Origin: a virus
Lineage: Duplodnaviria > Heunggongvirae > Uroviricota > Caudoviricetes
Virus record (IMG/VR): IMGVR_UViG_2636415906_000005
Length of the DNA stretch: 37,607 nt
Direction: 5' to 3' (one strand)
Shown: one piece after another, positions 4,206 through 34,590 of the stretch
Layout: each line of letters opens with the position of its first letter
Numbering within the stretch: the first letter of the stretch is position 1
Notes under the pieces: model-generated
What the model was told of the DNA's origin: nothing
Databases searched by the model: none
Seen by the model: the letters and a program-made list of their open reading frames with translations, nothing else
Translations under genes and position numbers: made by a program

Positions 4206-4397
4206 TTAAAGACCTGCCGGGATTTCGATATTATACTGGTGAATAACTTTATCGACCGGGTAACAGTTACCGGGAATTTTCTGTTCGGTTGCTGCAGTCA
4301 TACACTCCTGCATTGTCCTGTGAACACTGACTGCAATATCAACTGGCTCTCCGGAAACAAGAAAAACTGTCAGAACAAGCGCAAATGCTGAATTCAT
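4206..4397 (-). CDS. ydfD: YdfD-like small lysis/toxic protein
   Basis: Internal Met of the 81-aa track ORF gives a 63-aa product MNSAFALVLTVFLVSGEPVDIAVSVHRTMQECM..., near-identical to my recollection of E. coli K-12 YdfD; directly downstream of dicB as in the Qin prophage. Confidence 0.7.
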   Translation of the reverse strand: MNSAFALVLTVFLVSGEPVDIAVSVHRTMQECMTAATEQKIPGNCYPVDKVIHQYNIEIPAGL

Positions 4398-4582
4398 TGT
4401 GCACATCCTTTTGGCATCAGACGTAAACGAGCCAGCATTGAAACAATGCATATTTTATTTAATAGCTCCCGTTCTTGTTTTCTCTTGTTAATGGCATCTT
4501 CAGTAAATACAGGGTTACTGATAGTGACACCAATTTCAAAACAACCTTCAGACGTATTAACGTTTGGTAATAACGTTTTCAT
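4394..4582 (-). CDS. dicB: Cell division inhibitor DicB (MinC-dependent FtsZ-ring inhibitor)
   Basis: Internal Met of the 97-aa track ORF gives a 62-aa product MKTLLPNVNTSEGCFEIGVTISNPVFTEDAINKRKQERELLNKICIVSMLARLRLMPKGCAQ, which matches my memory of K-12 DicB; GAGGA ribosome-binding site about 8 nt upstream on the minus strand. Confidence 0.85.
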   Translation of the reverse strand: MKTLLPNVNTSEGCFEIGVTISNPVFTEDAINKRKQERELLNKICIVSMLARLRLMPKGCAQ

Positions 4583-4751
4583 TATCGCGTCCTCAACAAT
4601 GAATTTTGTGATGCAGTGCCTGGTGCCTCCAGGTGACGTTAACCAGTTAACAATTAACGCCGGATACAGAGAATCCACCCATAACACTGTTTTTGGTTTT
4701 AACTGTTCCGCGTGCGCTTAGCCGCATTCACCGCATCACAAAATTCACTTT

Positions 4752-4809
4752 AAAAACGGCGGCAGAGCAGTCACGGAGTAAAACTGATACCGCCAAACGT
4801 CACCAGAAA
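4752..4809 (-). ncRNA. dicF: DicF small regulatory RNA (antisense regulator of ftsZ and other mRNAs) with intrinsic terminator
   Basis: Reverse complement of 4752-4809 reads TTTCTGGTGACGTTTGGCGGTATCAGTTTTACTCCGTGACTGCTCTGCCGCCGTTTTTA, matching the DicF sequence as I recall it, with a terminal GC hairpin plus U-run; immediately upstream of dicB as in Qin. Ends are approximate. Confidence 0.85.
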
Positions 4810-5068
4810 ATTGATAACAGAGGGCGTTGCAGCGGGGTTGTCACTTAAGCGTATGGTCAACCTGACAACTCGGTGTCCTCAACGGGGAAGGAATAACCCC
4901 GCCATACTTACCGCCGCGCCATTTCGCGGGTTGCCACAACCGGAAGCGCACGGTCGAATTAAATTTAACGACACCGTACAGTGAGACGAACTTCGCCGTG
5001 CGCTTTCGTGTTGTGTGCCTGCTTTTAACCACGTCAGGCGAGGTGGTATCCTTAAAATCACCACAGTT

Positions 5069-5644
5069 TTAAGGATTCATTAAGCAATGTCGCAACCACC
5101 AATAAATCCGCTTAAGAACATGAAAATTGATTACTGGTATAAAGCGCTTACAGTTGTTGGCGCTGCGTTGTTTGTCTTTAATGGAACGTCTTTTTTTGAC
5201 AGATATCCCGTTGTTCCATTGGGTTTTTTGTCCTCCGGCATCTTTTTTATTGGTTTGGGGGAGTGGATTAATCACCCTCTCAAAGTGAGATTTATTGGTC
5301 CTGGAGTTTGGACTCGTGGATATAATCGTTCTTCGTGCGCACTCGGTATCATCTTCGACATACTTGGTTGTTTCCTGATTGTTACAGGAGTCGTCAAGTT
5401 CTTCTGATGTAAAACCGCAAATGGGGCACGTAACGGGAATTTTGAAAAGCGTTTCTCCGGGTTCCAGAACAAAATTTTCTGCGGTCTGATTTTGCTTCTC
5501 ATATTTGTGCTCCGCGTCATTGTGAGAGCACATTCTTATTCTGAGTGCCTGTTTAAACTCACTGAAGCTGAGAGCTTCTTCGCCTTCGGCAAGGCCTTCG
5601 AAGTATTCTTCGTAAGCCTTTTCCATGATTGTGTCGAAATCCAT
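5069..5644 (-). CDS. Hypothetical early-left protein (ydfB/ydfC-region equivalent) with CPICGF zinc-ribbon-like motif; 3' extent uncertain
   Basis: ATG at 5644 overlaps the ydfA stop; the first ~90 aa (MDFDTIMEKAYEEYFEGLAEGEE ... CPICGF) look protein-like, while the C-terminal half is Lys/Asn-rich low complexity and overlaps a plus-strand membrane-like ORF (5087-5407). One of the two readings is probably spurious. Confidence 0.4.
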   Translation of the reverse strand: MDFDTIMEKAYEEYFEGLAEGEEALSFSEFKQALRIRMCSHNDAEHKYEKQNQTAENFVLEPGETLFKIPVTCPICGFTSEELDDSCNNQETTKYVEDDTECARRTIISTSPNSRTNKSHFERVINPLPQTNKKDAGGQKTQWNNGISVKKRRSIKDKQRSANNCKRFIPVINFHVLKRIYWWLRHCLMNP

Positions 5645-5645
5645 A

Positions 5646-5801
5646 TCACTCACCTGAGTTTCTTTCCAGCCAGCGACGGGCACCATTTTCGGTTTTAAAC
5701 GTTTTGCTTTTGGTATACGTCATCGCGGTGAACGTACCGTCCTGGTTGGGGAACACGCCACATACCAGAGATTCGCTGTTGCCAAGATCGATAGTATCCA
5801 T
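5646..5801 (-). CDS. ydfA: YdfA-like small protein
   Basis: 51-aa product MDTIDLGNSESLVCGVFPNQDGTFTAMTYTKSKTFKTENGARRWLERNSGE from the internal Met of the 103-aa track ORF; first gene of the early-left operon downstream of dicA, the same position and size as K-12 ydfA. Confidence 0.6.
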   Translation of the reverse strand: MDTIDLGNSESLVCGVFPNQDGTFTAMTYTKSKTFKTENGARRWLERNSGE

Positions 5802-5874
5802 GCTGACCTCATTTCCCCTTAACGCCGGGGTAGCGGAACTGTTTGCTGAGAACACCGTGCGGTGTCTTGATTGA

Positions 5875-5993
5875 AGTAATTTAGTTTTCTCATTATTTTT
5901 CGTCAAGGTTTTTTGATGAGAAAACTCAAGTATTGGCGCAAGATAAAGCCAATACATTGAAATGTAAGGCTTTAAAATTTTGTGAAGGGATGA
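5875..5993 (-). promoter_or_regulatory. PL-like early-left promoter/operator region downstream of dicA, containing an OL-like operator repeat (5918-5936)
   Basis: Non-coding interval between the dicA stop and ydfA; contains GAGAAAACTCAAGTATTGG (5918-5936), which matches the dicA/dicC intergenic sequence at 6454-6471 in 18 of 19 positions, and a TATTGG-N12-CCAATA inverted repeat. Confidence 0.45.
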
Positions 5994-6401
5994 TTATTGA
6001 TGCTTGTTGCGTTTGCGAGCCTCTAATAGCTCGGTGAACAGGCGATTAAAATTCTCAACGCGGGCGCGGAGTTCGCTGAGTTGTGCTTGTTGCTCTGATT
6101 TAGGAAGTGCGCGATACAAACGCAGCATCTCTAACTCATCTTCCGATAAGTCTAAGGCACTATCGAGTGAAACAGGGGGAGCTGGTGTTTTGTCCTCGTC
6201 GCCAAACAGTATCCAGGTTGGTGAACATTGCAATACCTCGGCGAGGCGATGCAAATTTTGCCCGCGCGGGGCTGTATGGTCACTTTCCCATAATGAAATT
6301 GATGAGCCAGATACGCCAGCAGCTTTGCTTAAACCGTTTTGACTTAAGCCTACCTGCTTACGTCTTTTTCTAATGCGTTGACCTAAAGTTTTCTCGTTCA
6401 T
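5994..6401 (-). CDS. dicA: HTH-type transcriptional repressor DicA (P22 C2-like immunity repressor)
   Basis: Internal Met gives a 135-aa product with an N-terminal XRE-type helix-turn-helix (LSQNGLSKAAGVSGSSISLWE) and the C-terminal block VLQCSPTWILFGDEDK that I recall from K-12 DicA; divergent from a Cro-like gene. Confidence 0.85.
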   Translation of the reverse strand: MNEKTLGQRIRKRRKQVGLSQNGLSKAAGVSGSSISLWESDHTAPRGQNLHRLAEVLQCSPTWILFGDEDKTPAPPVSLDSALDLSEDELEMLRLYRALPKSEQQAQLSELRARVENFNRLFTELLEARKRNKHQ

Positions 6402-6478
6402 ATTTAGATATCTTAATAACCCTTGACTTGAGATTCCTTGAGTGATTAGCATTGAGAAAACTCAATATTGGAGGTGCG
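6402..6478. promoter_or_regulatory. Divergent dicA/dicC promoter-operator region (immunity switch)
   Basis: 77-bp intergenic region between divergent repressor genes; contains the inverted repeat TTGAGAAAACTCAA (6452-6465) and the near-palindrome TTAGATATCTTAA, consistent with repressor operators. Confidence 0.5.
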
Positions 6479-6706
6479 ATGTTTAAATCAGACGTAATTA
6501 ATTTTTACGGTACGAAAGCCAAAGTAGCGAAAGCTGCTGGCGTTGACCCATCTGCTGTTTCTCAATGGCAAGAGCTGGTTCCTGAAGGTCGCGCGATGCG
6601 TCTACAGGAGGCATCTGGCGGCGAGCTTCTGTATGATCCCAAGGTTTATGACGAATATCGTAAGACGAAGCGGGCGGGGCGGTTGAACAATGAAAATCAC
6701 TCCTGA
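6479..6706 (+). CDS. dicC: DicC, Cro-like repressor
   Basis: 75-aa product from the ATG at 6479, preceded by GGAGG (6470-6474); C-terminal part LVPEGRAMRLQEASGGEL.YDPKVYDEYRKTKRAGRLNNENHS matches my recollection of K-12 DicC; divergent from dicA. Confidence 0.8.
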   Translation: MFKSDVINFYGTKAKVAKAAGVDPSAVSQWQELVPEGRAMRLQEASGGELLYDPKVYDEYRKTKRAGRLNNENHS

Positions 6707-7211
6707 ACAGGCTCGTGAGGCTCTGGATGCCTGGATATGTCGACCAGGAATGACACAGGAGCAGGCGACGATATTAATCACTGAAGCATTCTGGGCTTTG
6801 AAAGAGCGCCCGAACATCGATGTTCAGCGTGTCACAGATGAAGGTGGCGCGGTTGATCAGCGAGCGCTTGGCGTTAATCGAGTGAAGATATTCGAACGCT
6901 GGAAGGCTATCGACACTAGGGATAAGCGTGAAAAGTTCACGGCGCTAGTGCCTGCAATTATGGAGGCTATCCGGATTAATGATTTCAGGTTGTATCGTGA
7001 AATTAGTGACGGAAAAAGCATCACGTACATGATCGCCGGGTTAAACAAAGAATATGGCGATGTGGTGGAGTCCGGACTGCTTTTTGCTGATCCTGCCGTA
7101 GTGGATCGTGAAACTGACGAACTTATAGAAAAAGCAATTGCTTTCAAACTTGCGTATCGACAGCAATACAAACAAAAAGCTGGATGGAATTATGAGCCTT
7201 CTTTTTGCTGA
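6690..7211 (+). CDS. Early-right protein, YdaT-like (CII-position regulator/toxin YdaT family)
   Basis: 173-aa ORF overlapping the dicC stop, in the position occupied by cII/ydaT in lambdoid prophages; the family assignment is a loose, memory-based similarity. Confidence 0.45.
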   Translation: MKITPEQAREALDAWICRPGMTQEQATILITEAFWALKERPNIDVQRVTDEGGAVDQRALGVNRVKIFERWKAIDTRDKREKFTALVPAIMEAIRINDFRLYREISDGKSITYMIAGLNKEYGDVVESGLLFADPAVVDRETDELIEKAIAFKLAYRQQYKQKAGWNYEPSFC

Positions 7212-10679: not shown

Positions 10680-10892
10680 GATTTCACATTGGCGAGGTAA
10701 CGGTAGTTAAGTAGAATGGCTGCGGGTGCTTGAGGCTATCTGCCTCGGGCATGAACACCAACGGCAGATAGAGAAAAGCCCCAGTTAACATTACGCGTCC
10801 TGCAAGACGCTTAACATTAATCTGAGGCCAATTTCATGCTAGACACATGTAGGTTAGCCTCTTACGTGCCGAAAGGCAAGGAGAAGCAGGCT
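10680..10892 (+). promoter_or_regulatory. hok mRNA leader with overlapping mok-like frame (from 10836) and expected Sok-antisense target region
   Basis: Upstream of hokD there is an overlapping ORF starting at 10836 (MLDTCRLASYVPKGKEKQA...), the mok-like arrangement, and a 9-bp inverted repeat CTATCTGCC...GGCAGATAG typical of structured hok leaders. The Sok promoter itself was not pinpointed. Confidence 0.4.
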
Positions 10893-11048
10893 ATGAAGCA
10901 GCAAAAGGCGATGTTAATCGCCCTGATCGTCATCTGTTTAACCGTCATAGTGACGGCACTGGTAACGAGGAAAGACCTCTGCGAGGTACGAATCCGAACC
11001 GGGCAGACGGAGGTCGCTGTCTTCACAGCTTACGAACCTGAGGAGTAA
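10893..11048 (+). CDS. hokD: Hok/Gef family type I toxin HokD (RelF)
   Basis: 51-aa product MKQQKAMLIALIVICLTVIVTALVTRKDLCEVRIRTGQTEVAVFTAYEPEE, which I recognise as HokD/RelF; followed by a fold-back repeat CGAGGGAgaaaTCCCTCG and an intrinsic terminator. Confidence 0.9.
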   Translation: MKQQKAMLIALIVICLTVIVTALVTRKDLCEVRIRTGQTEVAVFTAYEPEE

Positions 11049-11264: not shown

Positions 11265-11516
11265 ATGATGAACATCGAAGAACTGCGTAAAATTTTTTGT
11301 GAAGATGGCCTCTATGCGGTGTGCGTTGAAAATGGAAATCTTGTTAGTCATTACCGCATTATGTGTTTGCGAAAGAATGGGGCTGCGTTAATTAATTTTG
11401 TGGATGGTCGAGTGACAGACGGATTTATCTTGCGCGAAGGTGAGTTTGTCACTTCATTACAGGCACTGAAAGAGATCGGAATAAAAGCAGGCTTTTCAGC
11501 TTTTGCAGAAGAATAA
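11265..11516 (+). CDS. Hypothetical 83-aa protein (Rem-like by size and position next to hokD)
   Basis: ORF MMNIEELRKIFCEDGLYAVC...; K-12 Qin carries an 83-aa rem gene adjacent to hokD, but I cannot confirm sequence identity from memory. Confidence 0.45.
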   Translation: MMNIEELRKIFCEDGLYAVCVENGNLVSHYRIMCLRKNGAALINFVDGRVTDGFILREGEFVTSLQALKEIGIKAGFSAFAEE

Positions 11517-13299: not shown

Positions 13300-14117
13300 A
13301 ACTGGAAGATTTACCGAAATACTACTCCCCAAAATCCCCTTGCCTGACCGATGCATCGGCCTCAACGTCAAAAGATGCGCTGAGTATCACTGATGTGATG
13401 GCCGCGCAGGGCATGACACAGAATCGGGCTGAGATGGGGTTTTCTGCGTTCCTGGGGAAAATGGGCATCAGTATGAATGACAGGGCGCGGGCAACAGAAT
13501 TACTGGCAGATTATGCACTCAGTCGGTGCGATCGTGTGGCGGCGTTGAGAAAACTTCCGGTAGAAATAAAACCGTTAGTGATGCGCATTATGGCTTCGTA
13601 CGCTTTTGAGGATTATGCCCGCAGCGCAGCGAGTAAAAAGCAGTGCCCTTGTTGCTATGGGGAAAAATTTATTGAAAGCGTAGTTTTTACAAACAAGGTC
13701 CAGTATCCGGATGGTAAGCCGCCGGTATGGGCAAAGTGTACGAAAGGTGTGTATCCGTCTTACTGGGAAGAATGGAAAAAAGTCAGGGAGGTGGTAAAAG
13801 TTGCCTGTCCGGAGTGTGGCGGAAAGGGTGAGGTTTCCACCGTCTGTAAGGATTGCCGTGGGCGTGGTGTCGCCATTCACCGTGAAGAGTCGGTAAAACG
13901 TGGTATGCCTGTTATCAGAGACTGCCAGCGTTGTGGTGGTCGTGGCTATGAAAGACTACCATCAACGGAGGCATTTAATGCTATATGCGAGGTGACAAAC
14001 CAGATAACACGCGCGTCATGGGAAAAAACAGTTAAGAAATTCTATGATGCGCTGGTGACCCGGTTTGATATTGAAGAAGCATGGGCTGAGCGGCAGTTAA
14101 AAAAGGTAACTAGGTAA
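13296..14117 (+). CDS. Putative late-gene antiterminator (Q-like) with DnaJ-type zinc-finger repeats
   Basis: 273-aa ORF whose start overlaps the rusA stop; contains repeated CxxCxGxG motifs (CPECGGKG, CKDCRGRG, CQRCGGRG); positioned immediately before a tR'-like terminator, tRNA genes and the lysis cassette. Confidence 0.6.
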   Translation: MKLEDLPKYYSPKSPCLTDASASTSKDALSITDVMAAQGMTQNRAEMGFSAFLGKMGISMNDRARATELLADYALSRCDRVAALRKLPVEIKPLVMRIMASYAFEDYARSAASKKQCPCCYGEKFIESVVFTNKVQYPDGKPPVWAKCTKGVYPSYWEEWKKVREVVKVACPECGGKGEVSTVCKDCRGRGVAIHREESVKRGMPVIRDCQRCGGRGYERLPSTEAFNAICEVTNQITRASWEKTVKKFYDALVTRFDIEEAWAERQLKKVTR

Positions 14118-14260: not shown

Positions 14261-14336
14261 GGTCCTTTAGCTCAGTGGTGAGAGCGAGCGACTCATAATC
14301 GCCAGGTCGCTGGTTCAAATCCAGCAAGGGCCACCA
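14261..14336 (+). tRNA. tRNA with anticodon CAU, most similar to tRNA-Ile2 (lysidine, ileX/ileZ-like); tRNA-Met not excluded
   Basis: 76-nt cloverleaf folded by hand: acceptor GGTCCTT/AAGGGCC, D-arm TAGCTCAGTGGTGAGAGC, anticodon loop CTCATAA, T-arm GCTGG-TTCAAAT-CCAGC, 3' CCA; resembles my memory of E. coli tRNA-Ile2. Confidence 0.85.
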
Positions 14337-14398
14337 TCACAAACCGCCATGAGCTTATCAGGAAGAGCAGACGACACGATAACAGGGTTGTTGGTGGC

Positions 14399-14412
14399 GG
14401 GGGGGGGGGGGG
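14399..14412. repeat. Homopolymeric G tract (about 14 G) between the two tRNA genes
   Basis: GGCGGGGGGGGGGGGGGCGGG read directly from 14397-14416. Confidence 0.9.
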
Positions 14413-14446
14413 CGGGTCCCCGATGGCGGTCCATTATCGGTATTCA

Positions 14447-14523
14447 GCGTTGTTAGCTCAGCCGGACAGAGCAATTGCCTTCTAAGCAATCGGTCACTGG
14501 TTCGAATCCAGTACAGCGCGCCA
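14447..14523 (+). tRNA. tRNA-Arg (anticodon UCU)
   Basis: 77-nt cloverleaf: acceptor GCGTTGT/ACAGCGC, anticodon stem ATTGC/GCAAT with loop CTTCTAA, T-arm ACTGG-TTCGAAT-CCAGT, 3' GCCA. Confidence 0.85.
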
Positions 14524-14987: not shown

Positions 14988-15520
14988 ATACATATCTGGA
15001 TTATCACCTGTTACGGTAAAAAGTGATTGCTTACTGTTTTTGTGAATGGCATTGCAGCAGCCGGATAATGTCAGTGCTGGCTGACGGTGTGCTGGTGGCG
15101 GGTGTGGTGGTTGTTGCTTTCCCGTTGCTGAAAAAGAAAACGCCAGACTGTTAGCCGGGTATCAGTTAGCGGGAGAAATTTTTAAATACTTCACAATTCA
15201 GGCGGTTGACTGTTCTCTGGTTTGCGGGGAGTTTGTTAAAAGAAACTGGCATGGTGAATCCCCCTGTGCGGAGGGGCAATCAGCGAGTAGGTATATGGGA
15301 TAATCGCGGATTCAGGTGCTGGTACTGAATTCACCGGGAGGCACCCGGCACCATGCACTTCAATAGATTCTCTCCACATTATGGATATTCTTTCAGAATA
15401 TCCCACGCAGACTTTGTGTAAATGTTAACAAATGTGCGTTTTATTTGATCTGATTCGCTGTTTGAGCGTCCAAAACAACGGTATATATAATCCTTTACTA
15501 TATGACATATGTGAGGAAAA

Positions 15521-26247: not shown

Positions 26248-26267
26248 TCGTTTATGGAGCGTGAGGA

Positions 26268-29200
26268 ATGGGTAAAGGAAGCAGTAAGGGGCATACCCCG
26301 CGCGAAGCGAAGGACAACCTGAAGTCCACGCAGTTGCTGAGTGTGATTGATGCCATCAGTGAAGGGCCGATTGAAGGTCCGATGGATGGATTAAAAAGCG
26401 TGCTGCTGAACAGTACGCCGGTGCTGGACAGTGATGGGAATACCAACATCGCCGGTGTCACGGTGGTGTTCCGGGCTGGTGAGCAGGAGCAGACTCCGCC
26501 GGAGGGATTTGAATCCTCCGGCTCCGAGACGGTGTTGGGTACGGAAGTGAAATACGACACGCCGATCACCCGCGCCATCACGTCGGCAAACATCGACCGA
26601 CTGCGCTTTACCTTCGGTGTGCAGGCACTGGTGGAAACCACCTCAAAGGGGGACCGGAATCCGTCGGAAGTTCGCCTGCTGGTTCAGATACAGCGTAATG
26701 GTGGCTGGGTGACGGAAAAAGACATCACCATTAAGGGCAAAACCACCTCGCAGTATCTGGCCTCGGTGGTGGTGGATAACCTGCCGCCGCGCCCGTTTAA
26801 TATCCGGATGCGCAGAATGACGCCGGACAGCACCACAGACCAGCTGCAGAACAAAACGCTCTGGTCGTCATACACCGAAATCATCGATGTGAAACAGTGC
26901 TACCCGAACACGGCACTGGTCGGCGTGCAGGTGGACTCGGAACAGTTCGGCAGCCAGCAGGTGAGCCGTAATTATCATCTTCGCGGGCGCATTCTGCAGG
27001 TGCCGTCGAACTATAACCCGCAGACGCGGCAATACAGCGGTATCTGGGACGGAACGTTTAAGCCAGCATACAGCAACAACATGGCCTGGTGTCTGTGGGA
27101 TATGCTGACCCATCCGCGCTACGGCATGGGGAAGCGTCTCGGTGCGGCGGATGTGGACAAATGGGCGCTGTATGTCATCGGCCAGAATTGCGACCAGTCG
27201 GTGCCGGATGGCTTTGGTGGCACGGAGCCGCGCATCACCTGTAATGCCTACCTGACCACACAGCGCAAGGCGTGGGATGTTCTCAGTGATTTCTGCTCGG
27301 CGATGCGCTGTATGCCGGTATGGAACGGGCAGACGCTGACGTTCGTGCAGGACCGACCGTCGGATAAGGTGTGGACCTATAACCGCAGTAATGTGGTGAT
27401 GCCGGATGATGGCGCGCCGTTCCGCTACAGCTTCAGTGCCCTGAAGGACCGTCATAATGCCGTTGAGGTGAACTGGATTGACCCGGATAACGGCTGGGAG
27501 ACGGCGACAGAGCTTGTTGAAGATACGCAGGCCATTCTCCGTTACGGTCGTAACGTCACGAAGATGGATGCCTTTGGCTGTACCAGCCGGGGGCAGGCGC
27601 ACCGCGCCGGGCTGTGGCTGATTAAAACGGAACTACTGGAAACGCAGACCGTGGACTTCAGCGTGGGTGCGGAAGGGCTTCGCCATGTGCCGGGCGATGT
27701 CATTGAAATCTGCGATGATGACTATGCGGGGATCAGCACCGGCGGGCGCGTGCTGGCGGTGAACAGCCAGACCCGGACGCTGACGCTCGACCGTGAAATC
27801 ACGCTGCCATCCTCCGGTACCACGCTGATAAGCCTGGTTGACGGAAGTGGCAATCCGGTCAGCGTGGAGGTCCAGTCCGTCACCGACGGCGTGAAGGTAA
27901 AAGTGAGCCGTGTTCCTGACGGCGTTGCCGGATACAGCGTATGGGGGCTGAAGCTGCCGACGCTGCGCCAGCGCCTGTTCCGCTGCGTGAGTATCCGTGA
28001 GAACGACGACGGCACGTATGCCATCACCGCCGTGCAGCATGTACCGGAAAAAGAAGCCATCGTGGATAACGGGGCGCACTTTGACGGCGACCAGAGCGGC
28101 ACGGTGAATGGTGTCACGCCGCCAGCAGTGCAGCACCTGACTGCCGAAGTCACCGCAGACAGCGGGGAGTATCAGGTACTGGCCCGCTGGGACACGCCGA
28201 AGGTGGTGAAGGGCGTGAGTTTCATGCTTCGCCTGACCGTGGCAGCGGATGACGGCAGTGAGCGGCTGGTCAGCACGGCCCGGACGACGGAAACCACTTA
28301 CCGCTTCACACAACTGGCTCTGGGGAACTACAGGCTGACAGTCCGGGCAGTAAATGCGTGGGGGCAGCAGGGCGATCCGGCGTCGGTATCGTTCCGGATT
28401 GCCGCACCGGCAGCGCCGTCGCGGATTGAGCTGACGCCGGGCTATTTTCAGATAACCGCCACGCCGCATCTTGCGGTTTATGATCCGACGGTACAGTTTG
28501 AGTTCTGGTTCTCGGAAAAGCGGATTGCGGATATCAGGCAGGTTGAAACCACAGCACGCTATCTTGGCACGGCGCTGTACTGGATAGCCGCCAGTATCAA
28601 TATCAGGCCGGGCCATAATTATTATTTTTACGTTCGCAGTGTGAACACCGTTGGCAAATCGGCATTCGTGGAGGCTGTTGGTCAGCCGAGTGATGACGCA
28701 TCCGGCTATCTGGATTTTTTCAAAGGCGAGATAGGGAAAACCCATCTGGCTCAGGAGCTGTGGACGCAGATTGATAACGGTCAGCTTGCGCCTGACCTGG
28801 CTGAAATCAGGACATCCATTACGGATGTCAGCAATGAAATCACACAGACCGTCAATAAGAAACTGGAAGACCAGAGTGCAGCGATCCAGCAGATACAGAA
28901 GGTTCAGGTTGATACAAATAATAATCTGAACAGCATGTGGGCTGTGAAGCTGCAGCAGATGCAGGACGGACGCCTTTATATCGCGGGTATCGGTGCCGGT
29001 ATTGAGAACACCCCCGACGGCATGCAGAGTCAGGTGCTGCTGGCGGCAGACAGGATTGCGATGATTAATCCTGCAAATGGCAACACAAAACCGATGTTTG
29101 TTGGTCAGGGTGATCAGATATTCATGAATGAAGTGTTCCTGAAATATCTGACGGCTCCCACCATTACCAGCGGCGGTAATCCTCCTGCATTTTCCCTGAC

Positions 29201-29747
29201 ACCGGACGGAAAGCTGACCGCTAAAAATGCAGATATCAGTGGCAGTGTGAATGCGAACTCCGGGACGCTCAACAACGTTACGATAAATGAGAACTGTCAG
29301 ATTAAAGGGAAACTGTCAGCCAACCAGATTGAAGGCGATATTGTCAAAACAGTGGGTAAGGCTTTCCCGCGGGACTCCCGGGCACCGGAGCGGTGGCCAT
29401 CAGGGACCATTACCGTCAGGATTTATGACGATCAGCCGTTTGACCGGCAGATTGTTATTCCGGCGGTGGCATTCAGCGGTGCTAAACATGAGAGAGAGCA
29501 TACTGATATTTACTCCTCATGCCGCCTGATAGTGAAGAAAAATGGTGCTGAAATTTATAACCGTACCGCGCTGGATAATACGCTGATTTACAGTGGTGTT
29601 ATTGATATGCCTGCTGGTCACGGCCACATGACGCTGGAGTTTTCGGTGTCAGCATGGCTGGTAAATGACTGGTATCCCACAGCAAGTATCAGCGATTTGC
29701 TGGTTGTGGTGATGAAGAAAGCCACCGCAGGCATCAGTATCAGCTGA
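26268..29747 (+). CDS. Tail tip / host specificity protein J (central tail fiber)
   Basis: 1159-aa product starting [38 protein letters not shown], recognised as lambda J-like over most of its length; the C-terminal receptor-binding region differs from what I recall of lambda. Confidence 0.95.
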
Positions 29748-34009: not shown

Positions 34010-34590
34010 TGGCATTCAGAATGAGTGAACAACCACGGACCATAAAAATTTATAATCTGCTGGTCGGAACTAATGAATTTATTGGTGAAGGTGACGCATA
34101 TATTCCGCCTCATACAGGTCTGCCAGCAAACAGTACCGATATTGCACCACCAGATATTCCTGCTGGCTTTGTGGCTGTTTTCAACAGTGATGAGGCATCG
34201 TGGCATCTCGTTGAAGACCATCGGGGTAAAACGGTTTATGACGTGGCTTCCGGCGACGCGTTATTTATTTCTGAACTCGGCTCATTACCGGAAAATGTCA
34301 CCTGGTTATCCCCGGAAGGGGAGTTTCAGAAGTGGAACGGCACAGCCTGGGTGAAAGATGCAGAAGCAGAAAAACTATTCCGGATCCGGGAGGCGGAAGA
34401 AACAAAAAACAGCCTGATGCAGGCAGCGAATGAGCATATTGCGCCACTTCAGGATGCTGTAGATCTGGAAATCGCAACGGAGGAAGAAAACTCGTTGCTG
34501 GAAGCCTGGAAAAAGTATCGGGTGTTGCTGAACCGTGTTAATACAACAACTGCACCGGATATTGAATGGCCAGTAGCACCTATAGGGTAA
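34009..34590 (+). CDS. tfa: Tail fiber assembly protein (Tfa)
   Basis: 193-aa product; start overlaps the stf stop; C-terminal motif [31 protein letters not shown] is characteristic of Tfa chaperones. Confidence 0.85.

Follow-up and report, generated by a model that had tools for sequence, protein, structure and literature searches.

The inverted repeats that flank the repressor gene of this Qin/mEp460-like prophage are, as we judge with good confidence from the comparative evidence, the operators of a heteroimmune lambdoid switch of the Qin (DicA/DicC) type, and through them the repressor very probably silences both the cro-like gene and the dicF/dicB operon. This reading is supported by the clustering of the repeats, their position on promoters, the gene content, a within-species conservation footprint, conservation across genera, covariation with the repressor recognition helix, equivalence to the K-12 operator Oc and the presence of the same region in a functional phage. 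Binding, the pairing of each protein with its sites, the transcription start points and cooperativity are deduced from sequence. The layout as such is textbook for lambdoid phages and is already in print for K-12 Qin; the novelty lies only in the operator word and the site map of a common heteroimmune variant, for which no description was found in the searchable literature.

Prophage context and immunity region

The window (the whole stretch of DNA analysed, 37,607 nucleotides) is a lambdoid prophage of the Qin/mEp460-like type, inserted at ydfJ; it is 99.9% identical to a prophage of E. coli ACN002, the strain whose annotation supplied the names ydfA, dicB and rem. Between the repeats, a gene on the minus strand (5994-6401) encodes a repressor of 135 aa with an HTH_3 domain of the P22 C2-like type and no peptidase S24 domain, whose residues 1-72 match the DNA-binding domain of P22 C2 (1adr, E 8e-16; 2r1j, E 3.8e-15). 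A reading of the sequence alone had called this gene dicA. The product is rather a heteroimmune homologue, 56% identical to K-12 DicA, and because it combines the same position and architecture with this level of identity, the gene is the homologue at the K-12 dicA locus but belongs to a different allele class. RefSeq names it only 'helix-turn-helix domain-containing protein', not dicA.

Divergently transcribed from this HTH_3 gene is the DicC homologue, a Cro-like gene of the Pfam family P22_Cro (6479-6706, plus strand) with a product of 75 aa. Compared with K-12 DicC, its N-terminal DNA-binding part is only 36% identical while its C-terminus is 98% identical, the N-terminus being immunity-specific. 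On the other side lies the leftward operon (4394-5801, minus strand), composed of ydfA (5646-5801), a ydfB-like ORF, the DicF sRNA (4757-4808; Rfam match, 72.5 bits) and dicB (4394-4582), with a DUF1391 domain match in the dicB operon. The order to the left of the repeats is thus ydfA, the ydfB-like ORF, DicF, dicB, ydfD, exo, xis and int, and to the right the P22_Cro-family gene is followed by ydaT-like and replication genes, hokD/sok and rem, an annotated antirepressor gene (11265-11516).

DNA homology to K-12 extends up to about 5871 and starts again near 6578, leaving a non-homologous block of approximately 5872-6577. Since K-12 homology stops and resumes at its edges, this block corresponds to an immunity-specific cassette, and all candidate sites described below fall inside it. 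The immunity region is common, being present at a query coverage of at least 80% in 795 of 5,426 complete E. coli genomes.

The repeats and their clustering

Two repeats had been picked out by the sequence-only reading, GAGAAAACTCAAGTATTGG on the left (5918-5936, 19 nt) and GAGAAAACTCAATATTGG on the right (6454-6471, 18 nt). Both strings were recovered at these coordinates, and each holds the TGAG-N4-CTCA inverted repeat ascribed to it. They had been said to differ at one position: there is indeed a single difference, which, as the unequal lengths imply, is a 1-nt indel (an extra G at 5930) and not a substitution. The exact word common to both copies is the 13-mer TGAGAAAACTCAA (5917-5929 and 6453-6465). 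In the right copy the dyad ATTGAG-AAAA-CTCAAT (6451-6466) is perfect, and in the left one, ATGAG-AAAA-CTCAA (5916-5929), the arms are 4 bp long.

The conserved unit is shorter than the 19 bp first proposed, and corresponds to a 14-bp dyad, TTGAG-AAAA-CTCAA, with a functional extent of probably 14-16 bp. The longer unit was rejected on account of its '(G)TATTGG' tail, which is hypervariable among 52 distinct haplotypes drawn from 84 related loci of the species and is missing from both the ESC818 clade and the Buttiauxella relatives. In the left copy this tail forms part of a non-conserved hairpin stem.

Concerning the abundance of the motif, five copies of the 9-mer core GAGAAAACT were counted in the 37.6-kb window against 0.29 expected, five being reached in 0 of 100 shuffles, and four of them lie within 5883-6462. 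The dyad TTGAGNNNNCTCAA, allowing up to two mismatches, gives 16 matches window-wide against 18 expected, i.e. the chance level; however, 5 of these 16 fall inside 586 bp (5880-6465), where about 0.3 would be estimated from the window-wide rate, with starts at 5880, 5916, 6403, 6428 and 6452. Given the excess of the core and the clustering of dyad matches at 5880-6465, the repeat is real and non-random, and it has more copies than the two originally counted.

No enrichment of the dyad pattern that would indicate a window-wide regulon was found outside 5880-6465. The matches at 27432 and 36004 were discarded as regulon sites, being isolated and inside annotated coding sequences; these are gpJ (26265-29744) and the ydfJ pseudogene. 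It should be noted that GAGAAAACT also occurs at codons 3-5 of the repressor gene (6387-6395) and at 13547, and that the operator model leaves both copies unexplained. The copy at 6387-6395 was considered as an operator and rejected as unsupported, since it has 6/10 mismatches to the dyad and is not retained in the Buttiauxella relatives of the same specificity.

Candidate operators and promoters

A consensus scan of 5600-6750 predicts only two sigma-70-like promoters. The first, on the plus strand, would drive the cro-like (DicC-like) gene (6423-6452, TTGACT-18-TAGCAT), and K-12 PdicC has the same -35 and layout. The second, on the minus strand, would lead into ydfA-DicF-dicB as the analogue of dicBp (5906-5878, TTGACG-17-TAAATT); its -35 is conserved at the same place in other immunity types. 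Transcription is predicted to start at about 6459 from the plus-strand promoter and at about 5871 from the minus-strand one.

The strongest candidate operator, O_C (6452-6465), is TTGAG-AAAA-CTCAA without any mismatch. It begins in the last base of the cro-like -10 and covers the predicted start point (around +1), and its position matches that of Oc in K-12. The right repeat had been described as overlapping the dicC ribosome-binding site, which applies only to the last GG of the tail, touching GGAGG (6470-6474), since the dyad itself ends 4 nt upstream.

On the left side, O_B2 (5916-5929; ATGAG-AAAA-CTCAA, one mismatch) is the left repeat as first reported. Its assignment to the ydfA-dicF-dicB promoter region is correct in that it lies upstream of the leftward -35, beyond an A-rich UP-like tract, but it does not cover the -35; from the position of the hexamers its centre would be at about -51. 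A further candidate, O_B1 (5880-5893; TTTAGTTTTCTCAT, reading ATGAGAAAACTAAA on the minus strand), occupies the spacer and the -10 of the leftward promoter, with its centre at about -15 by the same estimate. O_B1 is a third strong copy, on the opposite strand and overlapping the core promoter, which had been overlooked.

Two weaker candidates, each with two mismatches, lie on the right side. The middle one (6428-6441, TTGAGATTCCTTGA) abuts or overlaps the -35 TTGACT and starts 24 bp before O_C. The other (6403-6416, TTTAGATATCTTAA) is adjacent to the start codon of the repressor gene and begins 25 bp ahead of the middle site; its sequence conforms to TTNAG-N4-CTNAA and resembles the P22 operator core. 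Hence, the starts on the right side (6403, 6428, 6452) are spaced by 25 and 24 bp, and the left side presents two sites only, 36 bp apart.

Conservation and covariation with the recognition helix

Within the species, the 14-mer at 6452-6465 is invariant in the 52 haplotypes, and the positions on either side of it (6449-6451 and 6466-6468) vary strongly. In the two left cores any variants are rare, next to a hypervariable 3' flank at 5930-5937, and O_B1 is kept in nearly all haplotypes. Counting columns with at least three minor haplotypes, none of the 42 columns of the three cores qualifies, against 34 of the 226 other intergenic columns (Fisher p 0.004, a value that overstates independence because the haplotypes are phylogenetically related, so that the footprint is indicative only); of the flanking columns, 17/24 are variable.

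The dyads are also conserved across genera. Two Buttiauxella prophages (L009 and L010) encode repressors 74-76% identical to that of the window, with the same recognition helix, and amid otherwise diverged DNA the gene is flanked on either side by ATTGAGTTTTCTCAAT (or CCTGAG.../ACTGAG...), with TTGAGAAAACTAA covering the leftward -10. O_C is kept in these relatives, O_B2 is kept as ATTGAGTTTTCTCAAT in L009 and ACTGAGTTTTCTCAAT in L010, and O_B1 as TTGAGAAAACTAA in both.

The weak right-side sites behave differently from each other. The middle one has no variable column in the 52 haplotypes, and is only partly kept in Buttiauxella. The one at 6403-6416 is invariant in the 52 haplotypes and conserved in L009 and L010, and also in a Citrobacter locus (L011) whose main operators differ from those of the window. 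Because it is conserved where the helix differs, this site does not track repressor specificity, and may belong to the repressor's own promoter or leader rather than act as an operator. By analogy with Om and Oa of K-12 (see below), both weak sites may be non-functional.

To relate operator word and protein, 17 loci with at least four types of recognition helix were compared. All four loci with the helix VS[GD]SSISLWES have TTGAG-N4-CTCAA, allowing one mismatch, on both sides of the gene, and none of the remaining 13 loci does. Of the 10 loci whose helices are of the type [IV][SA]HV[ST][IV]SQWE, 9 have TTAG-N6-CTAA upstream and 8 have it on both sides, at the positions that the dyads occupy in the window, with the experimentally validated Oc among these sites; the window has no copy of it on either side of the gene, compared with two and one in K-12-type loci. 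Loci with the helix RSSVSVFKWES or KSSVSVFKWEN have a word of their own, TAACTTTTGTTA. Each helix type is thus accompanied by its own word on both sides of the repressor gene, and the Cro N-terminus changes in parallel with the word. The layout remains constant across immunity types: a single site has its start within the cro -10, and a pair spaced by 35-36 bp brackets the leftward -35.

The first reading had proposed an OL/OR-like arrangement in which one repressor controls both the cro-like gene and the division-inhibition operon. The location of the dyads on the only two predicted promoters of the region, together with the helix covariation, supports that proposal.

Comparison with K-12 Qin, P22, lambda and related phages

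For K-12, the published model places operators on either side of dicA (Bejar 1988, as cited in PMC10448788), and the lambdoid model of operators shared by repressor and Cro has been applied to DicA/DicC (PMC10448788). DicA represses dicBp 22-fold, with derepression in a dicA deletion, and its induction is not RecA-dependent, flipping of a bistable switch having been reported (PMC10448788). Oc (TTGTTAGTCATAACTAACAA, as given in Yun 2012) is the one operator shown to bind DicA in vivo; it overlaps the dicC -10 and is inactivated by single-base changes, whereas Om and Oa, predicted from sequence, displayed no DicA binding when tested alone (PMC3441716).

The window shares with K-12 Qin the gene order (ydfA, repressor, divergent cro-like gene, ydaT-like), a repressor of 135 aa with no autocleavage domain, its location upstream of dicF/dicB, the presence of rem, a strongest operator that begins in the cro-like -10, and a second operator set at the ydfA-dicF-dicB promoter, with two sites 35-36 bp apart around the -35. 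Set against the published DicA operators, the agreement is one of position, O_C being the equivalent of Oc, and not of sequence, as the K-12 word is absent from the window. The word is TTGAG-AAAA-CTCAA instead of TTGTTAGTCATAACTAACAA, that is, TTGAG against TTAGT when the half-sites are compared in the frame of P22; the immunity blocks are not homologous, with the repressor 56% and the Cro N-terminus 36% identical. A different half-site spacing (N4 versus N6) was considered and rejected: in the 14-bp frame of P22 both words read as 5-N4-5 with the outer TT conserved, hence the half-site geometry is unchanged from K-12.

P22 C2 recognizes 18-bp operators with TTAAG half-sites separated by four uncontacted A/T bp, with V33 and Q37 at the interface (PMC5175364). 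The N-terminal domain of C2 (1adr/2r1j) is the closest solved relative of the window repressor, and the cro gene belongs to Pfam P22_Cro. Common features are also the 5-bp half-sites, the 4-bp A/T-rich centre and the outer TT (TTGAG-AAAA-CTCAA versus TTAAG-ATAT-CTTAA; the 18-bp P22 immC consensus is ATTTAAGATATCTTAAAT), and the 24-25 bp spacing of the right-side candidate sites. The differences concern the half-site, TTGAG instead of TTAAG; the C2 contact residues N32/V33/Q37, which align to G/S/L in the window repressor; the C-terminal LexA-like cleavage domain, which the window repressor lacks, only HTH families giving a match; and the leftward operon, which consists of cell-division inhibitors and not of P22 early-left genes.

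With lambda OL/OR the window would share the principle of one repressor and one Cro acting on common operators at two flanking promoters to give a bistable switch. It differs in that the proteins are of another subfamily, the sites are smaller, the left side has two clear sites where three would be classical, no more than about 540 bp separates the clusters, and induction, judging from domain content, would not be RecA-dependent.

The same immunity region, with all sites, occurs in mEp460_ev081 (LR597641.1) and HannyBb (PP925841.1), at 99.3-99.7% identity over 711 bp, likewise with dicB to the left; the window is a prophage, whereas these are free, functional phage genomes. For mEp460_ev081, a functional temperate phage, the identity of the immunity region is 99.7%. 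No operator analysis of either phage was found in the searchable literature, where a search for the operator word yielded irrelevant primer matches only.

Proposed mechanism

In the switch that we propose, a dimer of the 135-aa DicA-like repressor would bind O_C, presumably in the P22 manner as the operator geometry is the same as for P22 C2. Since O_C starts in the -10 and covers the predicted start point, its occupancy would turn off the DicC-like gene. The same repressor on O_B1 and O_B2 would keep ydfA-DicF-dicB silent. RNA polymerase would be occluded at the cro-like promoter by O_C at +1 and at the leftward promoter by O_B1 at about -15, and O_B2, at about -51, would add a cooperative or UP-element-blocking contribution to repression. 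The DicC-like Cro would use the same sites and shut the repressor gene when the switch flips. As the repressor has no autocleavage (S24) domain, release is expected to depend either on the Rem antirepressor or on a flip of the bistable switch, as in K-12.

Alternative explanations

Four other explanations were weighed, which even taken together are unlikely, with conservation, covariation and position speaking against each of them. According to one, the dyads serve the Cro-like DicC homologue alone, and the DicA-like repressor uses other sites, such as the TTAAG/TTTAG-type palindrome at 6403-6416. The parallel change of the Cro N-terminus with the operator word would fit, and for K-12 the direct genome-wide binding data are for DicC, not DicA: DicC ChIP-seq infers one site on each side of dicA, with a TTNG...CNAA palindrome (PMC11430063), and a 2020 survey gives the DicA binding location at dicB as 'unknown' (PMC7567609). 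The repressor helix, however, covaries with the word just as cleanly, K-12 DicA itself binds Oc, the positional equivalent of O_C, and the palindrome at 6403-6416 is kept in L011 despite a different helix. Sharing of operators by repressor and Cro, as is the case in lambdoid phages, points in the same direction, and we regard exclusive use by Cro as very improbable.

A role in termination or promoter activation has to be considered for the left copy, which might mainly be the repressor-gene terminator (a hairpin at 5930-5955 plus the U-rich UUGAGUUUUCUC) and/or owe its A/T tracts to UP-like elements. The hairpin (minus strand, GUAUUGGC-N10-GCCAAUAC) is located just downstream of the repressor gene and immediately 5' of the T-rich strand of O_B2; it has a z-score of -3.6, appears in the centroid fold but not in the MFE, and explains why the left repeat has its GTATTGG tail. 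The hairpin may act as a terminator stem, O_B2 providing the U-rich tail, and by its estimated position O_B2 falls between -45 and -58, the zone of UP-element action. Against this, a terminator scan of the region gave no match, and the stem, of 8 bp with four G-C pairs, is disrupted in the ESC818 clade and missing from K-12, while the dyad is retained. Neither function explains why identical dyads are present at O_C and at O_B1, or why the word covaries with the helix, so that as the main role both are scarcely credible, and a secondary one is the most that would be left. A structured RNA or terminator was rejected as the main explanation on the same grounds, an Rfam search having likewise returned no family at the repeat site.

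The similarity could also be historical, left over from a duplication or from gene conversion involving the two promoter regions, or as a recombination linker at module boundaries. In the window it does run past the dyad into a non-palindromic tail (CCAATA), and L010 has a comparable common tail with a 1-nt offset. Among close relatives, however, the tails are the most variable part and the dyads are invariant; the dyads persist across genera in diverged surroundings, lie inside the immunity-specific block and not at its edges, and are replaced in each immunity type by its own word at the same promoter positions, all of which makes a relic most improbable. Pure chance is countered by the same conservation, covariation and promoter positions.

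Significance and wider readings

Taking the repeats as operators of the switch, the operator word of this prophage can now be written, TTGAG-A4-CTCAA, and for every immunity type, that of K-12 among them, the comparison fixes the expected places of the repressor at the promoter of the dicB operon, the first across spacer and -10 and the second upstream of the -35. This provides mutation targets and probes for dicBF induction in clinical and commensal strains and in phage mEp460_ev081, and implies nothing conceptually new.

Readings that go beyond a routine operator set are, on the whole, doubtful. Repressor-mediated looping between the clusters, about 540 bp apart and enclosing the repressor gene, is a possibility. 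The loci may also form a specificity series on one scaffold and geometry, composed of TTAAG with N32/V33/Q37 (P22), TTGAG with G32/S33/L37 (window) and TTAGT with H32/V33/Q37 (K-12 Qin), which, if true, would amount to a readable recognition code for C2-type HTH domains. Finally, the operator flanks may be under diversifying selection that tunes the sensitivity of the switch through indirect readout: few positions in the 680-bp immunity region are as polymorphic as those immediately flanking the operators, and the dyads are frozen.

Variation around the predicted operators and the repressor start

The predicted operator dyads are frozen in sequence, but the columns that directly flank them (5908-5909, 5930-5937, 6449-6450 and 6466-6468), each of which carries several alleles, rank among the most polymorphic of the 680-bp immunity region. 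This variability beside the dyads could reflect relaxed constraint or, as a second reading, operator affinity that is being tuned.

Adjoining the start codon of the repressor, the DicA homologue of the window, lies a further palindrome, TTTAGATATCTTAA (6403-6416), which comes within a single base of TTAAGATATCTTAA, the core of the P22 operator recognized by the C2 repressor of that phage. It shows no variation among the 52 haplotypes of the region and is also kept in the Citrobacter braakii locus L011, despite the different main operators found there. The palindrome may belong to the promoter or leader of the repressor gene itself, or else may be an OR3-like site.

The core word of the dyads, GAGAAAACT, has two more exact copies in the window. 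The copy at 13547-13555 is located within the Q-like antiterminator gene, in the context TTGAGAAAACTTCC, which amounts to a perfect left half-site followed by A4, while the copy at 6387-6395 falls within the repressor gene, inside codons 3-5, and the Buttiauxella relatives have not retained it.

Downstream of the repressor, a hairpin of the form GUAUUGGC-N10-GCCAAUAC (5930-5955, - strand, fold z-score of -3.6) lies about 40 nt past the stop codon and is immediately followed by UUGAGUUUUCUC, that is, operator O_B2. It could act as a weak terminator whose U-tract doubles as operator sequence; conservation of the hairpin is absent in the ESC818 clade and in K-12.

Additional genes and RNA features

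At the ydfB position, a 205-aa ORF (5069-5686, - strand), whose start resembles YdfB, has a full-length match to phrog_35040 (E 5e-141), despite which a ydfB pseudogene is the sole RefSeq annotation there. On the opposite strand runs a hydrophobic 106-aa ORF (5087-5407, + strand), for which a family search gave no match. The heteroimmune prophage of the window also carries an annotated rem gene (11265-11516); in K-12, Rem serves as the antirepressor to DicA, with which the repressor of the window shares 56% identity.

Other RNA features comprise the sok antisense RNA with hokD (10724-11048), the STnc100 sRNA (15220-15410), the IS009 RNA (34352-34550) and annotated Ile and Arg tRNA genes (14261-14520).

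Qin-type loci under other taxon labels

Among the compared loci, L007, L008 and L012 come from contigs assigned to Bacillota, Veillonella parvula and Collinsella MAGs, and contain E. coli Qin-type prophage DNA. The repressors of L007 and L008 share 99% identity with that of the window; the L012 repressor shares 58% identity with it and is near-identical in sequence to K-12 DicA. Most likely, these contigs are mis-binned.
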